A stretch of DNA of 58,442 bases, the filler included, from Dirinaria sp. TL-2023a (taxonomy: Eukaryota): the NCBI GenBank assembly GCA_051941275.1. It is 6 parts of 6 records of this genome, joined end to end, with 100 filler letters (N's around TTAATTAATTAA, not from the genome) between each part and the next. Parts side by side here need not be neighbours in the genome. Positions count along the whole stretch, not along the records: positions 1 to 9,675 come from JAVEBF010001019.1; 5 more parts are not named here. One strand, given 5' to 3'. The number at the start of each line of letters is the position of its first letter. Position 1 is the first letter of the stretch. Positions 1 to 11,428 of the stretch are shown here, in pieces. The notes beneath the pieces are model-generated. The model worked only from the letters and a program-made list of their open reading frames with translations, was not told the origin of the DNA and ran no database searches. A program made the translations under genes and the position numbers.

Positions 1-1468
1 CTGAGCATGCCGTGAAGTCTTTCTCAGATTCATCATCGCCAAAATCTTCTTCACCGTCATCATCTGGACTCTGCCTTTCTTCCGGCCCGGAATCGGAATG
101 GCTTTGCGCCCCCAACCAGCGAGCCTGAGAGGCCTCTGAAAGAGTTCGGCCAACGCCCGGCAGCGACTCCCTCACCTCCAAGATGCCTTTTTCGCGGCTT
201 CGGAGTTCCAGTCTCCGCTCAGAATTCTGTCGTGCAGTACCTACAATCTGTTCTAGCAGCGCAGACAATTTGCGGAGCACGTCTTGGCTGCGACTTTCCC
301 ACTCCTGAACCCTTTGACTGACGTCAATCTTTTGGACGTCGTCGAATAGGCCTGCTTCATGATAGGCTAGGATGAAGTTGTGTATCTGCGTCACCCACAG
401 ACGTGGCATCTCTTGGGCGACGACATCTTGATCTTTCTTTCGAAATGACCGAGTCTTGAGCTCCAAAATCGCTGACTGCGGGACTAGTACTCCGCCGTGT
501 TTGATGGCTAAGGAGCCTCTCGGACTGGGAAAGATATGAGAAACGCTGTTCGTTGCAAGCAAAGTTGACAGAGTATCGTAAGATGCGTTTGGCGCAGCAA
601 TATCTGGCAATTTACCCGCCTTGGGGCTCTCCACGCTCTTATCTTTGAGATAACCATCCGCACCAAACCGCACCAGACAGTTGAAGCCATCAAAGTTGTA
701 GTTGATAATCCGTTGATGAGAGACCGATCCTTTTACCTCAGCATCCCAGCTGGTATACGCCTCCGGAAAAGTGTGGCCAAACCCTCGAACGTTGGGAATG
801 AGCTCTGTTGGTGAGTTTTCCCTGCGTTCGAAGAAAACGCTGTCACCAATTGCTTCGACTAGGATCCGAAATTGCTTTTCCTCTCCGCTCACGAAACGGA
901 GAAGATTACTGATGGTACTACTGCACGCGAATATGTCGACAGACGTGGTGGGAAATTCGGGGCACTCTGCAAGGATCGCTCGCACGGCGGGCTCCATCGG
1001 ATGCGTAGGGTATCGCGCAGCATTGGGGTCACGGAAGTACTCGCCATTGTCTTCCTTGAGCTTCTCCGCGATTGTAGGAGGAGTCCAGGCTGGTGGCTGT
1101 CCTGAAGCAACTATTAGCGTCTCATGAGTTTAACTGCAGCACATGCTTTGGTTGATGGACGAGGCCTTGGATGGAACTATACCGGGTACTAGAATTGCCT
1201 TTCCCTCCTTGTCCAGCCAACTGTAGGATGCCAAGGCCTCGCAATCCGTTATGCAGGGAGCATCTTTTTCAGTCTCAGGGAGGGTCTCAAGGTCTTGTTC
1301 GCTGATGATCGTCTTCAGCGAGCCCAAAGGCGGTGACGGGACCCTCTCCGGGACGAAATTTGCTCTTCGGTACGAATTGGATGATTCTGTATTACCTCTC
1401 CACGATCTGGAAGGTCTGCTTCGATAGGCAGCATTCCGGCCTCGTAGAAGACCACGACCATTATACAT
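1..1468 (-). CDS. Rai1/DXO-like PD-(D/E)xK-fold putative nuclease (fungal family often labelled 'geranylgeranyl pyrophosphate synthetase'); 3' end runs off the window
   Basis: ATG at 1468 and a GT-AG intron at 1182-1102. Hand translation of exon 2 is open to position 1: ...VDIFACSSTISNLLRF...GFGHTFPEAYT...SHQRIINYNFDGFNCLVRFGADGY...AILELKTRS...MPRLWVTQIHNFILAYHEAGLF...DFTACS. The motif order resembles DXO/Rai1 motifs II-VI. Exon 2 is absent from the ORF track because it has no stop in the window. Confidence 0.75.
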
Positions 1469-2136
1469 TTTCAATGGGGAAGAGCGAAAATCTGGGTTGC
1501 TGGGTGAAGGCTGAGAAGAATGTGTCTGGAAGACCAGCTCACTTATGTGGCCGGCTATCCTAGAAGTGAAGCGGCACCACGCAGGACATGCAGCAAGGCT
1601 GCCGTGTAACCAGTATTCCGACACGTCAGAGCAACCCCTCTTTACTGACCGATGCTTACCATCACGATACTTGGTAGTCGAGGGAAAAACCGACGACGCA
1701 GTGCAAAGAGTGGAGGACCAAATATAGAGTCGCTATACGCTTGATCGGTAACCACTTGAAGCCGTGTGGCCTTCTTGGTTGTTAGTTTCGTTGCAGAGAG
1801 CTGAAGTCTGATAGCGTCTGTCGGTGAAGCAGGCTCTACATACGAGACCTAGGAGTTCCGGCATTCCTTTGAGGCATTTGTTTGCCTAGTCAAGTCTATG
1901 CTATCATCCGAAATATTTGGTAGGTCGCAGATGCACTACGGATCTGTGCTTGACCACTACAGCTCTCTTCAAGCTCCTATCATCATCTCTATTGAGCCGT
2001 CCAATCTCCGAGGAGTTTGGAAGTCGCCTACATTGACCTATTGAATCGGTACAGTACAGCTTTCTCAATCAATTCGACCAAGCTTCGCCGTACTGCCGCC
2101 TCAAGGAAGGCAGAAATACCTTCAAAACTTGCTACG

Positions 2137-5100
2137 ATGTCTTCCAGCTCCGCAGATGCCGCCCGACTGGCTAGGTTGAGCAAGTTCTATGGGCAAGTGT
2201 TGCCCGGGAGAAGGAGTATCAAAAATGCAGCGGATACAAACTTATTTCTAGAGGCGATCTGCAATGAAAAAGATCATCAGCGCTGCATTGAAAAGCTGGT
2301 GGGCAGCTCACATGCCCTGAATGCTCTTCAATCAGGTCTTAGATTCGATGTTTCGTTGGGCTTCGTCAATAAGAATCTTGCGCCCTTTCTTCATTATTTA
2401 TCGGATCCTGTCGTCAAGGAAGTGTGTAATGGGCAATTCCTGAGGAAGCTTTTGGATATCATTGTGGAGCCACCTACACTTTGGAAAATATTGGTTGCGT
2501 CCGCGAAAGGTAGACTATTAAGCGAAGGGGCCTTGTTGGGTTTTGCGTGGTTACTGTGCGAGCTTGTTCAGATACCTGGATCCACCAGTCCTGAAATTCT
2601 TGAGGACGCGCAACACGCCATAACCGACAAACTGCTGCTTGAGTCCGAATCTCACGCAATCCGCACTTACGGTCACAAGATCCAACACATTCTTCTTACT
2701 AGGTCTGTGGCAGTGCCCCATCAATACGGAATTACCCCTGGCGGTCGCCACGACAACGATTTCGAAGATTTCAGACAGATTGCCATCTTTCCGACAGCGG
2801 ATGAGTTTTTATCTACCGAAAAACCATTCTATCGACGCGCAGATGCAATTAGCGAGGCCGAGCTGGATAATCGCACTGCAATGCATCTTGACAATCAATT
2901 TAGACTCTTGCGTGAAGATATGCTTGCAGAGCTAAGAGAGGACCTTCAGGTGGCGACCGGGAAAAAGAAAGGCAAACGCCCTGCTTCAATTTTAGCGGAC
3001 CTATCTGTGGTAGGGTTATTTCTTGGTGAAGAAAAAAAGCGCCGGCCCGTAGCTCTGGCCGTTACATGCAATTCTGGGCTCGAGCCACTCGTACTTCGCC
3101 CACCAGGCCAACGAAAAATTTTCCTTGGAGACAATCGAAACTTCCTGAAACATCAATCCTTTGGGTGCATTGTCCACGGAGACACAATTGTGGCTTTTGC
3201 GACGTTGGACAGGAATGAAAATGCGTTGCTTAACGATCCGCCGGTTGTTATGCTGCAAATCGCCGGCGATGAGGCACTGAAGCCGGTGCTCTTCGCCTTG
3301 AAGTCGAAAGCCCATCTGCGATTCATACTTGTAGATACAGCCACATTCGCATACGAGCCAATTTTGAAGTGTCTGCAAGAGCGAGTAGATTTACCACTTG
3401 CCAATGAGCTATTGGCGTATGGCTCTATAGGACCAGAGCAAGAAGATTCTTTGATACCTGACTACGTCATGAGGGCCTTTGAACAAAATTGTGACGGAAG
3501 CGTACAGAATGTCTTAGAAACCCCAAAGGCTATAAAGCTCGACCAATCGCAGATGCAGTCTCTCATTGCGGGACTGACTCATTCGCTTAGTCTGATTCAA
3601 GGGCCTCCTGGTGAGTTCTGGGCATTCATGGCTTATAGAGTGACGTGTAACGATTCTAGGCACCGGCAAATCTTTCATCGGCGCATTACTAGCCAAAGCA
3701 TTCCATGATTACACAAAGCAGACTATTCTTGTAATCACCTATACGAACCATGCTCTCGACCAATTCCTTGAAGATTTCCTGGACATTGGCATTCCAGCGA
3801 ACAGTATTGTGCGGCTTGGGTCTAAGTCCACTCCCAGGACTGCCAGTCTTAACCTGTCCGAGCAGAAAGTGTCTCATAAACACTCACAATCTGTCTGGAG
3901 TGCGATTAATTTGCAAGAGTCGGAACTGAATGAACATCAGAATAGCTTAATGAAAGACTTCAATTCCTATAATTCCTTTTCTCCGCGATGGTACGATATA
4001 ATGGAATACCTTGAATTTTCTGAAGAGTACTGTTCTTTCGCGGAGGTCTTGAAAACTCCGGAAGCAGAAGAAGGAATGACCATGGTAGACAGCCGAGGTA
4101 AAAACGTTGGTCCTGGGTATCTTTACGGTCGATGGAGTTCGGGTCTCAATGCTGGCGTGTTTGCAAACAATGTTGCTCCAGAGCACCAGGAGTACTGGTT
4201 AATGAACAAACCTTCCCGCCAGACTTGCATTGATAAATGGACCCGGGAACTCCTTCAAGAAGAAATCGCAAACGTCTGTGGGTCAATACAGCGCTTCAAC
4301 AAGTGTCAGCGACAACTAGACGAAGCTCGAGGCGAAAGATCCCGGGCAATTCTCAAACAAAAAAGAGTAATTGGATGTACAACCACGGCGGCTGCTAAGT
4401 ATGTCAGGGATCTTCGGAGTTCCTCGCCGGGGGTAATCATAGTGGAGGAAGCTGGTGAGATCCTGGAATCCCATATACTCTCTGCATTGTCAGCAGAGAC
4501 CAAGAGACTAGTACTCATTGGTGACCACAAACAATTAAGGCCCAAGGTCAACAACTACGCCTTGACGGTGGAGAAAGGTGATGGTTATGATTTGAACAGA
4601 TCACTTTTCGAGCGGCTAGTCCTCGGAGGGCATCAGCACATGACTCTTAATAGGCAGCACCGCATGTCTCCTGAAATCTCATGTTTGGTGAGGCATCTCA
4701 CCTATCCTGATCTATTGGACGCCCCGAAAACCTTGGAGCGACTACAGCCCCGGGGTTTACAAAGCCGAGTCACATTTTTCAACCATGATCAACCGGAGGC
4801 GAATTTCGAGCGAATCGCTGATCGCCGCGACGAAGGCGCGAAAGCTAGCAAGCGAAATATATTCGAGGCTGATTTGGTCTTGAAGATAGTACGATATATG
4901 GCACAACAAGGATACGGAACAGACAAGCTAGTCGTACTCACCCCTTACCTGGGCCAACTGCACCTTCTTAGAGATCAATTGAGCAAGGACAACGATCCAA
5001 TCCTGAATGACCTTGATTCGTTCGATCTTGTCCGTGCCGGTCTACTCTCACAAGCCAGCGCAAAACTCTCTCAGCGTCCGCTACGATTATCTACCATTGG

Positions 5101-8100
5101 TAAGTAGGACGTTCGGCCTTTGCAACAGCAGCCTATCTCTGCATATTATATGCTCCGTTTCTACTTTAAACATGCTGACGCGCCGTAGATAATTATCAAG
5201 GCGAAGAGAGCGATATCGTGATTGCGTCCCTTACGCGCAGCAACAGCATTGGGGAGATTGGCTTCATGGCCGCCCCAGAGAGATTGAATGTTCTTCTGTC
5301 TAGGGCTCGCATAGCACTTATAATGATTGGAAATGCAGAGACCTTTATTAAGGGCCGAAGAGGCAAAGAGACTTGGACACCTCTGTTCAATAAGCTCAAA
5401 GAAAATCAGCAGCTCCATGACGGCCTACCAGTGAAATGCGAACAGCACCCACAAAAGCTAGCCCTCCTGCGAAAAGCGGAAGATTTTGACACAGAATGTC
5501 CAGATGGAGGTTGCGCCGAGCCTTGGTAAGTGTCCTTGTGCGAATTGTTTCTGACATAATTGTTGACCCGCGAAGTGGAGCAAAGCTTAGCTGTGGCATT
5601 CATGTTTGTCCGCAACGATGCCATCAACTTTTCGATCACTCGAAGATGGAATGCCATATCATGGTGGAGTCAACTTGCTCCAGGATGCATCGTTCGTCTC
5701 GACCTTGCTTTAAACAAGAACTGACCTGCCGAAAATGCGAAGCTGAGGACCGTGAAAAGGAAAGGAAGAAGCAGAGGGACCACCAGCTTGATATTGCACG
5801 TGAGATGAAACAGAAGCAGTATGCACAGGAGCTGCAAGACCTCCAAGACCAAATGGAGCAGGAGCGACGCGTTCTGCGGGAACGAGCCGAACAAACTGAC
5901 CAAGAAAATGTCCTTCGACAGCATCGGCAAGATCTTGAAAACATTAGGCGGTTAGCGCGGGGTTCGCAGAAAACACAGGATATCCAGGGACCCGTACCTG
6001 CCAGTGCAAAAGTCTCCAGCGCTAGCAACCCCCGTCCTGTGGGTCATACTCCGGGGCAACGGAAAGAACCCTCACAACAGGGTGCAGAGGACCTTGATCT
6101 ACAGAAGTCGGGTGCTCGTGAAGAGTGGTTGTACCAGAAAACGCTCGAGGGTACACAAAACGAGGAACTCGATAGTCTAATGGAGATGATCGGCCTTGAG
6201 GAGGTCAAATCAAAGTTTCTGACCATCAAATCAAAAATTGATACCGCTATCCGTCAAAATATCGACACGAAAGGTGAAAGGCTTGGCGCAACTCTGCTGG
6301 GCAACCCGGGCACAGGTACGCGAAAGTTCTCTTGAAGACAATCTCGCCTGTAGAGCTAACCTTCCATAGGCAAGACTACCGTTGCGCGAATATATGCGAA
6401 ATTCCTAACCTCGGTTGGTGCTCTACCTGGAAGTTTTTTCGTTGAGTCTACCGGATCGCGAATTGCGAATGACGGGATCGCTGGCTGCAAAAAGCACATA
6501 GAAAATATCTTGAACAATGGCGGAGGCGTTTTATTCATTGATGAGGCATATCAACTCACCTCTGCGCAAAACATTGGTGGTGGCCAGGTCCTCGATTTTC
6601 TCCTCGCAGAAGTAGAGAACTTAATCGGCAAAGTAGTCTTTGTCCTCGCCGGCTATAATAAGCAGATGGAGACATTCTTCGCCCACAATCCTGGTCTACC
6701 GAGCCGATTCCCTCATGAGATACAATTCAAAGATTATACTGATGATGAGTTACTTGAGATCTTGGTCCAAAAGATCAGCAAAAAGTACAGTGGAAGGATG
6801 GAGCTAGAAGACGGAATTAGGGGCTTGTATGCTCGCATCGTATCTCGTAGGGTCGGTTATAGCAGAGGTCGTGAAGGATTTGGCAATGCACGAGCTGTGG
6901 AGAACGTCTGCTCGCAAATCGCAGAGAGGCAAGCGAGCCGAATCCGACGTGAAAGGAGAGCCGGAATCGCGGCGAATGATATGCTCTTCACAAAAGAAGA
7001 CTTGATTGGCCCTGAACCTTCCGAAGCACTCAAAGGCTGCAAGCCTTGGACCGAGTTGAAGAATCTCATTGGTCTCAGCGCTGTGAAGGAGTCAGTACAA
7101 GCACTCGTCGCGAGTATTGAGTTCAATTATGAACGAGAGCTTGAAGAGCAACCTCTCGTAGAATATACACTCAACAAGGTATTCCTTGGTTCTCCGGGTA
7201 CCGGAAAGACCTCTGTTGCGAAGCTTTATGGACGTATACTCGCTCATATTGGTCTTCTTACTAACGGCGAAGGTTTGGAACTCGAGAATCCGCTCTGCAA
7301 AGAATGAAAGCTAATTCAATTAGTGGTAGTCAAGAATCCTGCAGACTTTGTTGGGAGTGTACTAGGTGCATCGGAGCAGAATACCAAAGGTATTCTGGCG
7401 GCCACAATGGGAAAGGTCCTTGTCATAGATGAAGCATATGGGCTTTTTGGCGGCGCGGGGGATGGAGGCGGCTCGCGATCAGATCCATACAAACAGGCAG
7501 TCATAGACACTATTGGTAAGTGACATTTTACTCTTTATTGTTATCTTCCATTCCGCTTGGATGCGCAAGATTGGATCTTGAGTGCTTTTCGACCAAAGAC
7601 GTTCCACGCTCGAGAAAGTATGCTGACTTGGTTATTTAAAAGTTGCCGAAGTACAAAGCACGCCTGGAGAAGATCGGTGTGTGCTCTTGCTGGGATACAA
7701 GGATCAAATGGAAGAAATGTTTCAAAAAGTGAATCCTGGACTGAGTCGCAGATTTCCACTCGACTCTGCATTCGTTTTCGAAGACTTTACAGACGAGGAG
7801 CTAGGAAAGATTCTGGACCTCAAATTGAAACAACAAGGATTTGAAACTACCGATCAAGGTAGAAAAGTGGCTCTTGAAGTCCTACGTCGAGCCCGCAACC
7901 GTCCGCATTTTGGTAACGCAGGCGAGATCGACATCATGCTCAATGCAGCGAAGGCCCGTCACCAGCAGCATAGAGGAAGAGCTGGTAAGGCCAGGAGCGC
8001 GGCCATCCTCGAAGCTCGACATTTTGACGAAGATTTCGACCGAGGGGAACGTGCTGAGACAAATATACGCGTTTTGTTCAAAGGCACGGTCGGCTGTGAG

Positions 8101-9599
8101 GAGATCATCTCCCAGCTTGAGGGCTACCAACACATAACAAAAAATATGAAAAGACTGGGCATCGATCCTCGAGAACAGTTACCTTTCAACTTTCTTTTCC
8201 GCGGGCCTCCAGGTAAGTGAAAGCTGATGTCTATTGTCGAAATTCGCTGATTGTTCAAGGGACCGGAAAAACCACTACGGCAAGGAAAATGGGCAAAGTG
8301 TACTATGACATGGGATTCCTAGCAACGGCAGAAGTGGTTGAAGGCTCTGCTACAGATCTGGTGGGCCAATACGTGGGTCAAACAGGCCCCAAGGCCCAAA
8401 AGCTCCTGGAGAAAGCCCTCGGAAAAGTACTTTTCATCGATGAAGCCTACCGACTTGCCGAGGGTTCTTTCGCGAAGGAGGCTATGGACGAAATAGTGGA
8501 CTGCATCACTAAACCCAGGTTCGATAAGAAGCTCATCATCATCCTTGCTGGCTATGAAGCGGACATAAACCGGCTCATGTCGATGAATCCGGGCCTCACG
8601 AGTCGGTTCCCAGAATCTGTACAATTTCGAGCGCTGAAACCGGAAGAGTGCAAGGATCTTCTGACTGAGCTATTTGAAGGGCACAAACGAAATTTACTTC
8701 GAAAGCGAAGTGACCTGGACATCACAGTGCTGCAGTCGCCTGATACCGAGTTCTCGGCGAAGCTGCAAGATCGCTTTCAAATGCTTTCCATGCTACCCAA
8801 TTGGGCCAATGCTCGCGACATTCAAACCATTGCCAAGAACATCTTCGGCAAACTACTCAAGTCGGCCACTGAGTCTTCAAACGAACTGCATCTCGAAGAA
8901 GCTACCATCCTAGCGCAACTGGACTCAATGATCGCCGAGAGAGCGAACAGGGGCAGTTCAGCCACTTCAGACCCCATAACCAGGCCAACTCCAAGACCCG
9001 AAGTATTTCCCCCTCAATTTGCCAATCCTCCAGCGCCATCCATAACAACAGCAGCGTCGTCGATAACTCACCAAAATCCTACCGAAGCTGAGCCGAGCCG
9101 TGATGAAACAAACGCTGCAGAACCCCCATGCAATGATGTGACCCGCGACGTCGGAGTGACGCAGGAGATATGGGAGCGCCTTCAACAAGATAAACTCGCC
9201 GCCGAGGCGAAAGAAAATGAATACCAGCGCCTGATGGAGGAAGAAGCCGCTCTCGCGAGAGCAATAGCAGACTCCGACGCCGCTGCCGCCGCCGTTCCAG
9301 AGCAGCAGCAGCAGAAAGCACCAGCCACCCAGACCGAGCAAGACCTAGAAGCGAAACGCCACCACGAAGAAGCGCGGCTGAAGCACGAATTCGAAAGACG
9401 GGTCTCCGAGAAGCGGCTTGAGATCCTGCGTCAGAAGAAGGCGCGCGAGGAAGCGCAGCGCCAAAAAGAACGGCAAGCCCAGACGAAGCTGAGAGAGATG
9501 GGAGTATGTGTCGCGGGTTTCAGGTGGATCAAGCAGGCGGGCGGGTATCGCTGTGCGGGGGGCTCGCATTATGTATCTGATGCGCAGCTTGGGATTTGA
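2137..9599 (+). CDS. ZNFX1/Hrr1-type SF1 (Upf1-like) helicase fused to a short NF-X1-like Cys region, a coiled coil, three CbbX/SpoVK-type AAA+ ATPase modules and a C-terminal Cys/His motif (~2300 aa)
   Basis: ATG 2137. Inferred introns 3611-3659, 5100-5188, 5526-5575, 6316-6369, 7273-7323, 7516-7642 and 8213-8259 restore one frame. Helicase motifs: GGRHDNDFEDFRQIAIFPT, QFRLLRED, GPPGTGKS, VEEAGE, GDHKQLRP, SLFERL, QHRM, IDNYQGEE, RLNVLLSRAR. Three AAA repeats each have GxPGTGKT, hhhDEAY, NPGLxxRF and (G/A)NA(R/G). The C-terminus is CVAGFRWIKQAGGYRCAGGSH. Confidence 0.9.
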
Positions 9600-9675
9600 T
9601 AGATGTAGGAAGCTAGTGGGGAGGGGGGGTTTTAGATGGGTTGCCTGGTTTTTTCGGGTGGGATATATATAATGT

Positions 9676-9775: not shown

Positions 9776-11428
9776 CCCACGCTCAAACCTCCCATGCACA
9801 AGGCGCCCAACCCACTCTCGCTTCTACGGTTGCTTAATCTGCGCCAATGGCTATTCTTTCTTGTCGCCTTCCTCGCTTGGTCGTGGGACGCATTTGATTT
9901 CTTCACGTAAGGCTCCGCGAAGCAAGCGAGCGAATTCTACTCACACTGCTAGCGTGTCTTTGACGACGGAGCAGCTTGCGGAGCAGTTTGATAAGTCGGT
10001 GGCGCAAATTACTTGGGGTATTACCTTGGTGCTCATGTTCCGATCAGTTGGCAGTGTCGTTTTTGGTATTGCTGCTGATCGCTGGGGTAAGTCAATGTTG
10101 GTCCTATAACATCAAAATAACGTTCATCTTTGCCTGTAGGACGTAAATGGCCATTCGTAGTCAACAACATACTTTTCATTGTCCTTGAGCTTGGCACCGG
10201 CTTTTGCAATACTTACAAACAGTTCCTAGCTTGCCGTGCACTCTTCGGCATTGCGATGGGTGGTCTTTATGGCAACGCTGCAGCCACTGCGCTCGAGGAC
10301 TGCCCCGAGCAGGCCAGAGGTATTATCAGCGGTATGCTTCAACAGGGTTATGCTTTTGGCTATCTTCTAGCTACCGTTTTTTCTCGTGGACTTGTCGACA
10401 CCACCTCTCATGGGTGGCGGCCTCTGTACTGGTTCGGTGCTTGCCCTCCTGTTTTGATCATAATTTTCCGTCTGTGTCTGCCAGAAACAAATTCGTATAT
10501 CGAGCGAGCAGCTGCACGCAGAGCGAAAGGAAATGTTGCCGGCACGTTCATTGCAGAGGGCAAAGTAGCGCTGAGAAGGCATTGGCTACTACTGATATAT
10601 TTGGTTCTCCTCATGGCTGGTTTCAATTTCATGGTCTGTCGGGACGCCGTGCATCGTATTCTCATCCGGCTGACACAAAAATAGTCCCACGGTTCTCAAG
10701 ATCTTTACCCTACAATGCTAAAGAACCAGTACAACTTCTCCGCGAACGCGGTCACTGTGACCCAAGTAGTTGCGAATCTCGGTGCCATGGCTGGTGGCAC
10801 AACTGTTGGCTACAGTAAGCAGGACAAAGTTCGACATGGTCGTATTCCCATTGACATCATCGCAGCCTCCCAGATATTCGGCCGACGCTTCTCGATCATT
10901 GTGACCTCTTTTATCGGCGGTGTCTTGCTCTACCCGTATTCGTTCACAAGTAGCCATTCCGTCATGGCTGCCGCATTCTTCGAGCAGTTCTGCGTTCAAG
11001 GAGCCTGGGGTGTTATTCCAATCCATCTGATGGAGCTCTCACCTGGGAGTTTCAGGACCTTTGTAGTAGGCACAAGCTATCAGCTTGGCAATCTTGCTTC
11101 TTCCGCTTCCTCGACTATTGAATCTACAATCGGAGAGCGTTTTCCGCTGCCGCCGAAGGGGAAAGTCAAGAGATATGGGTACGGCAAGGTCATTTGTATC
11201 TTCATGGCCTGCGTATTCGTGTACGTGATTATCCTTGCTTTGGTGGGGCCGGAGAGGCTGGGCCGGAAGTTCGATGTCGCACATGACAGTGATATGACTG
11301 AAGCGGCGGGGAGGGATGCGGTAGCTGCGGCAGCACATGAAAGAGGAGCATTGGGAAAGGCAGATAGGGACTCCTGCGAAGATGAGAAGGGGAATTCGAC
11401 AAGGACAGCGGTTGAGGTTCATGCTTGA
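9776..11428 (+). CDS. JEN1: MFS carboxylate transporter, Jen1/sialate:H+ symporter family; 5' end truncated by the contig edge
   Basis: Multi-exon ORF: WDAFDFFT...ITWGITLVLMFRSVG...ADRWGRKWP...GIAMGGLYGNAAATALED...SGMLQQGY...SHGSQDLYPT...QGAWGVIPIHLMELSP...YQLGNL. Confidence 0.88.

Follow-up and report, generated by a model that had tools for sequence, protein, structure and literature searches.

Do two divergently oriented genes of a fungus, one encoding an RNA helicase fused to three AAA+ modules (gene B) and the other a protein with a predicted DXO/Rai1 fold (gene A), form a working unit directed against RNA? The question is raised by positions 1-9675 of the window, by which we mean the whole 58,442-nucleotide stretch of Dirinaria sp. 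TL-2023a (genome G000) that was analysed, in which several contigs are joined with N spacers between them. Labels beginning with C denote contigs of this genome, L scanned loci and P protein records. An earlier note on this DNA had read the pair as a candidate RNA-targeting defence module. We found the pair preserved in many moulds and lichen fungi that are distantly related to one another. That it is an accessory RNA-silencing or surveillance unit, with products acting together on foreign or aberrant RNA, is the most likely of the readings considered, at about even odds.

Positions 1-9675 are the entire contig C1019. The nearest named homologues, like the RNA runs described below, indicate a lichen-forming ascomycete. 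The earlier observation that the pair fills its contig stands, but says little alone, because the assembly (27.7 Mb) is split into 3105 contigs, and the end of this one interrupts gene A. The divergent arrangement was borne out by the gene models, with start codons at 1468 (minus strand, gene A) and 2137 (plus strand, gene B), 668 bases apart. Gene A contains one 81-nt intron and runs for 462 codons until the contig end cuts it, about 12 codons short of the gene end when compared with P0001, a 94% identical relative that extends past the cut into a Cys4 tail. Gene B has eight exons and seven GT..AG introns and encodes 2331 amino acids with no internal stops and four Walker A motifs (residues 489, 1326, 1604 and 1883). 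In RNA contigs of a relative 93-95% identical to the window (four runs of one sample from one study), both genes were seen to be transcribed, and all eight modelled introns were spliced out as predicted.

Conservation of the divergent adjacency, which the earlier note had suggested checking, was evident in two sets of genomes. A scan of metagenome contigs, anchored on gene A, gave 145 relatives, the best 80 of which were examined; gene B lay upstream on the opposite strand in 56 of these 80 loci, with 336-1208 bp between match ends. Grouped at 85% nucleotide identity, the same 80 loci formed 51 clusters, of which 37 were paired, 5 were without gene B (counted as such only if at least 1.4 kb upstream was present) and 9 were too short, giving a head-to-head pair in 37/42 informative clusters. 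The outer flanks were not conserved, and no flanking gene was widely recurrent beyond the pair; ankyrin-repeat frames, in the flanks of 5 clusters, were the only recurrent flank feature. For named species, contig sizes as printed, locus tags and accessions were compared by eye in lists of the top 120 matches, an equal-sized contig being no more than a proxy for linkage on megabase contigs. Among the matches listed, both genes were on one contig in 32 of 35 species, with consecutive tags or accessions in 10. Thirty-one species appeared in both lists, 27 of them with the same contig and two of the four mismatches with consecutive accessions, and three of four additional species had the genes on one contig; the unlinked species were A. 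sclerotiicarbonarius, A. carbonarius and P. glandicola. As a separate observation, Venturia effusa carries a gene B (a 939-aa piece) followed by two gene A-family genes within three accession numbers (P0211, P0367, P0333), one of them 798 aa long.

Co-phylogeny, another check suggested in the earlier note, was also found. In trees built from the window and 27 named pairs, the distances of gene A and gene B were correlated at r 0.96 (0/2000 permutations), and 14 of 25 splits were common to both trees. The correlation alone is weak as evidence because linkage by itself predicts it. Both genes also joined Teloschistes (Lecanoromycetes) and Glonium (Dothideomycetes) at full support, breaking taxonomy. 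In an 18-row subset, approximately unbiased (AU) tests rejected a Lecanoromycete clade for gene A (p 5e-6) and for the AAA+ region of gene B (p 2e-13), the tested group having been picked after the trees were seen and the Teloschistes record being metagenome-assembled. In a 90-row gene B tree, Orbilia and Arthrobotrys were nested among Dothideomycete sequences, and Tothia stood beside Amylocarpus on short branches. Cassette transfer, hidden paralogy or contamination could each underlie this discordance.

The description of gene B as a ZNFX1-type helicase fused to three AAA+ modules was confirmed by Pfam (AAA_11/AAA_12, AAA and AAA_lid_6) and by PDB searches with the full-length homologue P0122, whose best match was ZNFX1 (9q9z, E 4.7e-75, versus 1.6e-28 for Upf1) and whose AAA+ part best matched CbbX (E 4e-33) and EccA1 (E 3e-27). 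Across 89 full-length homologues, ATPase motifs were kept in the helicase and in all three AAA+ modules. The helicase Walker B reads EEAG in 86-87 of the 89, resembling the deviant EEAA of human ZNFX1. The features of CbbX-type AAA+ modules (Walker A and B, arginine finger region, AAA_lid_6 and pore loop) were all found, with an aromatic pore loop in module 3 only (89/89); modules 1 and 2 are without the aromatic pore residue. CbbX threads a protein tail through its aromatic pore loop. In the N-terminal region, where ZNFX1 has an armadillo domain, residues 1-200 of gene B had no Pfam or PDB sequence match. A Cys-Cys-His motif ends 74 of the 89 homologues and had no match in the Atlas. The RZ E3 finger pattern was found in 0/89, and PF20173 was absent from three full-length homologues and from the window's last exon. 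Gene B is a ZNFX1-like paralogue; the canonical ZNFX1 of this genome is another gene, with CCCH and RZ fingers (L022 on C1022).

Further gene B pieces lie on C1805, C2576 and C3002, their 5' ends falling off these contigs. Because the pieces on C1805 and C3002 are only 43% identical to each other, the genome carries at least three gene B copies, unless some derive from another fungus in the assembly. AN7246 of A. nidulans is a gene B homologue. Two side observations concern this family. A further ZNFX1-like helicase is present in the genome (L023 on C310), with no RZ match in the scanned frames; and the gene B homologue at L099:5331-9073 is only 3.7 kb long yet matches both protein ends, which suggests a large internal deletion.

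Gene A belongs to a large family (2544 representatives in 50% identity clusters at E up to 0.001; 830 at 1e-30) that databases often name 'geranylgeranyl pyrophosphate synthetase'. That identity was ruled out, as no such Pfam match was obtained in 26 + 111 members and the predicted fold is that of DXO. Gene A itself has no Pfam match at cut-off, and Pfam RAI1 (PF08652) matched 0/26 and 1/111 family members (E 0.12). The DXO link failed or was weak in PDB sequence searches and in profile comparison with the genome's canonical Rai1, which is a separate gene; the ESM Atlas gave a weak lead (0.88) to a nematode cluster, 49% of whose members carry RAI1. For structure, we used an AlphaFold2 model of P0001 (predicted local distance difference test score, pLDDT, 84.8). 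This model matched mouse DXO in Foldseek at E 1e-14 and six DXO/Rai1 chains at Z 24.6-26.4, with a root-mean-square deviation of 3.3-3.6 A over 283-312 residues and 8-14% identity; Dxo1 (Z 20.3) and eIF3d (15.0-16.5) came next and all others reached at most 5.2. As modelled, gene A has the DXO/Rai1 fold. The DXO/Rai1 label in the earlier note is supported by this predicted fold, but could not be demonstrated from sequence. A pattern-based search of prokaryote genomes and viral contigs, which can miss distant relatives, yielded none for gene A.

We then compared 313 gene A homologues with the six published DXO/Rai1 motifs (PMC4513879), placing positions by alignment and secondary structure, without residue-level superposition. 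No Arg occurs at residues 153-160 (motif I) in 297/313, and Gly or Ser stands at the helix start. Motif II (G-h-x-h-E) reads GHTFPE, with Pro at the Glu position in 297/313 and Glu or Asp one residue later in 295/313. In motif III (EhD), D244 is kept in 310/313 and E242 in 246/313. The motif IV residues D/E309 (306/313) and K311 (310/313) and the motif V Gln, Q334 (306/313), are retained, while the motif V Lys is not evident. In place of motif VI (GhR) there is A-[YF]-H, with His in 309/313; a single-pair alignment (E 0.027) sets it against the GFR in this genome's Rai1. All six scored site residues are kept in 221 of 311 ungapped homologues; 58 are without the motif III Glu only, and P0001 is without two acids. 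On the model and alignment, gene A keeps the fold and most metal-site residues, but its 5'-end pocket is changed and its nuclease activity is putative.

The two genes share an upstream region in which a bidirectional promoter core is likely at about 1516-1681, because RNA contigs of gene A extend to 1489-1515 and those of gene B start at 1682-1704; the contigs fix neither starts, strand nor level. An 8-mer at window 1594-1601 is present in 17 of 37 pair intergenic regions (the window and 36 metagenome clusters), with 1.1 expected from shuffles, and at a density of 17 in 20 kb of intergenic sequence versus 29 in the other 486 kb; about 8 of the matches come from one related group with common context. 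Of 5 matches to the 8-mer in the scanned stretches of this genome (108 kb), none lay at the 5' end of an RNA interference (RNAi) gene, and a regulon shared with RNAi genes is therefore unsupported. Expression of the pair upon infection gave no term matches in supplements of PMC7648066 (searched for the pair's names), PMC4890784, PMC7379330, PMC11194562 and PMC5133918; tables with identifiers only, or unreadable or absent supplements, may hold data.

Genomic neighbours provide a modest link to RNA silencing. [quoted passage not shown] Dicer, RdRP or Argonaute thus stands beside the pair in 2/51 clusters versus 0.11-0.20 expected, a rough estimate assuming 368 kb of flank and 8-15 RNAi genes per genome (P 0.005-0.017). 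In the genome under study, a gene B paralogue (L021 on C1805, 3-4630) is tail-to-tail with an Argonaute gene, about 220 bp apart. Most Argonaute matches in the flank scan were dropped, as they arose from a gene B-paralogue frame in the query set. With respect to the locus itself, L058 (11652-14677) and L066 are 94-99% identical, and a ~3.5 kb insertion with the RdRP between gene A and Argonaute represents presence/absence variation in an RNAi cluster. N. crassa SAD-3 is a ZNFX1 family member. Worm ZNFX-1 and S. pombe Hrr1 work with RdRPs (PMC9276528). Worm EOL-1/DXO is required for DRH-1-mediated RNAi, and six worm DXO paralogues adjoin the RdRP gene rrf-2 (PMC7735679).

Beyond the architecture, splicing, pairing and co-phylogeny, which are observed, we infer a course of events for the proposed accessory unit. 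Gene B would load on single-stranded foreign or aberrant RNA via its ZNFX1-type helicase and move along it; the three AAA+ modules may form a closed ring, for example of six modules from two copies, and remove bound protein by way of the module 3 pore loop. At the RNA 5' end, gene A would act as reader or trimmer; the remodelling of motif I and of parts of motifs II, V and VI predicts a specificity unlike that of Rai1. The RNA could then be degraded or passed to RdRP, Dicer and Argonaute, and the shared promoter would keep both proteins produced together. A bolder form, which we offer tentatively and hold to be possible though doubtful, is a mobile antiviral machine made of two genes in filamentous fungi: an RNA sensor of ZNFX1 type, its ubiquitin ligase replaced by a triple AAA+ unfoldase, would join with a DXO-fold 5'-end reader to dismantle viral ribonucleoproteins (RNPs) and feed the RNA to Dicer, RdRP and Argonaute, and would spread between fungal classes as a single cassette, in the manner of helicase-nuclease defence systems of prokaryotes.

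Several observations weigh against the accessory unit. The genome already holds a canonical Rai1 and an RZ-finger ZNFX1, and its three or more gene B copies compare with a single gene A match. Gene B is not upstream of gene A in 5/42 informative clusters and, among the matches listed, in 3/35 named species; both genes are expressed in a thallus sample without known infection; and RNAi neighbours occur in only 2/51 clusters, against a rough chance estimate. Within gene A, the motif I Arg is absent in 297/313 homologues, the copy in the window has Gly for the motif III Glu (E242), and P0001 is also without the motif II Glu (Ala there); because of these losses, catalysis by gene A may be dispensable. 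In a variant of the same module, gene A, with little or no catalysis, would sense 5' ends or regulate gene B, and the AAA+ motor would be the effector. The missing motif I Arg, a motif III Glu lost in about one fifth of homologues including this one, the two acidic ligands lost in P0001, and eIF3d, which binds caps with this fold, all fit that variant. We nevertheless find it rather unlikely: 306-310 of the 313 homologues retain D244, D/E309, K311 and Q334, the usual signature of an active PD-(D/E)xK site.

The pair could instead serve housekeeping RNA quality control, as a unit for the decay of cellular RNPs that are uncapped or stalled, with no connection to silencing or viruses. A Upf1-class helicase with a DXO fold, expression without a known trigger and very wide spread in Pezizomycotina would suit such a role, which the variable flanks, paralogues, taxonomy-breaking trees, RNAi neighbours and separate canonical Rai1 and ZNFX1 genes make unlikely. 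Tight divergent pairing, joint taxonomic discordance and the ankyrin-repeat genes in the flanks of 5 clusters would also be consistent with a toxin-guard or cell-death pair, in which gene B as RNA sensor releases gene A to destroy host RNA in abortive defence or incompatibility, independently of RNAi. Gene A without gene B in 5 clusters, the weakened active sites and the commonness of ankyrin genes in fungi render that decidedly improbable. Finally, the genes might be neighbours by inheritance only, without shared function, as co-phylogeny of linked genes is expected anyway and some copies are unpaired; since several classes retain the orientation and the spacing (336-1208 bp between matches) despite turnover of the outer flanks, this is scarcely credible.

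Compared with known systems, the accessory unit proposed here draws on familiar parts. Gene B shares with the ZNFX1 family (human ZNFX1 9q9z, C. elegans ZNFX-1, S. pombe Hrr1) the superfamily 1 (SF1) helicase with its 1B region, the EEA-type Walker B and a zinc-finger region after it, but has no RZ E3 finger, a short zinc-finger stalk, three CbbX-type AAA+ modules, its own Cys-Cys-His C-terminus and a fixed DXO-like neighbour. CbbX and EccA1, the remodellers closest to its AAA+ modules in the PDB, share the aromatic pore loop kept in module 3; unlike them, gene B has three modules per chain, two of them without that aromatic residue, fused to an RNA helicase. Gene A shares with the decapping and exonuclease enzymes DXO, Rai1 and Dxo1 the predicted fold, the motif III Asp, the motif IV acid and Lys and the motif V Gln; it differs in the absent motif I Arg, the Pro at the motif II Glu position with Glu one residue later, the His for the motif VI Arg, an acidic tail with a Cys4 motif, and linkage to a helicase gene. 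The DRH-1/EOL-1 antiviral RNAi arm of C. elegans, as covered in the available part of PMC7735679, likewise unites an RNA helicase with a DXO-family protein in a single silencing response, with DXO paralogues clustered by an RdRP gene; DRH-1 is a RIG-I-type helicase without an AAA+ fusion, and that part does not describe the two genes as a head-to-head pair. A literature search, in which coverage of subscription journals was mostly missing, returned no description of the fusion, of the gene A family as DXO-like or of the pair. The parts thus belong to known folds, and their combination and linkage are undescribed in the literature searched.

Features of the pair are collected in Table 1. Past the N spacer, the next contig carries at window 9776-11428 a multi-exon gene which, by eye, we take to be a major-facilitator carboxylate transporter and unrelated to the pair.

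Table 1. Coordinates of the divergent gene pair and its shared upstream region in the window.
Feature	Position	Strand	Evidence
Gene A exon 1: N-terminus rich in Arg/Gly, and the opening strands of the predicted DXO-type fold	1183..1468	-	gene model; splice seen in RNA contigs
Gene A intron, 81 nt, GT..AG	1102..1182	-	gene model, RNA contigs
Gene A exon 2: predicted DXO/Rai1-fold core (D244, E309-x-K311, Q334), acidic tail, start of Cys4 motif; cut by contig end	1..1101	-	gene model, homologue alignment, predicted fold
Shared upstream region, 668 bp	1469..2136	.	RNA contigs (true starts cannot be fixed by contigs)
8-mer enriched in the pair's intergenic regions, candidate regulatory site	1594..1601	+	motif counts
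Gene B exon 1: N-terminal region unmatched in Pfam (residues from ~200 onward align to ZNFX1), up to helicase Walker A	2137..3610	+	gene model, Pfam, PDB search
Gene B exons 2-3: SF1 helicase core, EEAG Walker B, family-specific insertion; start of Cys/His zinc-finger region	3660-5099, 5189-5525	+	
Gene B exon 4: short zinc-finger region and charged linker, then the beginning of AAA+ module 1	5576..6315	+	
Gene B exons 5-7: CbbX-type AAA+ modules 1 and 2, start of module 3	6370-7272, 7324-7515, 7643-8212	+	
Gene B exon 8: AAA+ module 3 with its aromatic pore loop, then a charged tail and the conserved Cys-Cys-His motif at the C-terminus, ending in the stop	8260..9599	+	

For the gene A family, the predicted fold corrects a misannotation: a large set of proteins often named 'geranylgeranyl pyrophosphate synthetase' would be a hidden DXO-fold branch with an altered 5'-end pocket. 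Fungal antiviral defence has been described almost wholly in terms of Dicer, Argonaute and RdRP, and the helicase-AAA+/DXO-fold pair, if it acts as proposed, would add a new arm to it.

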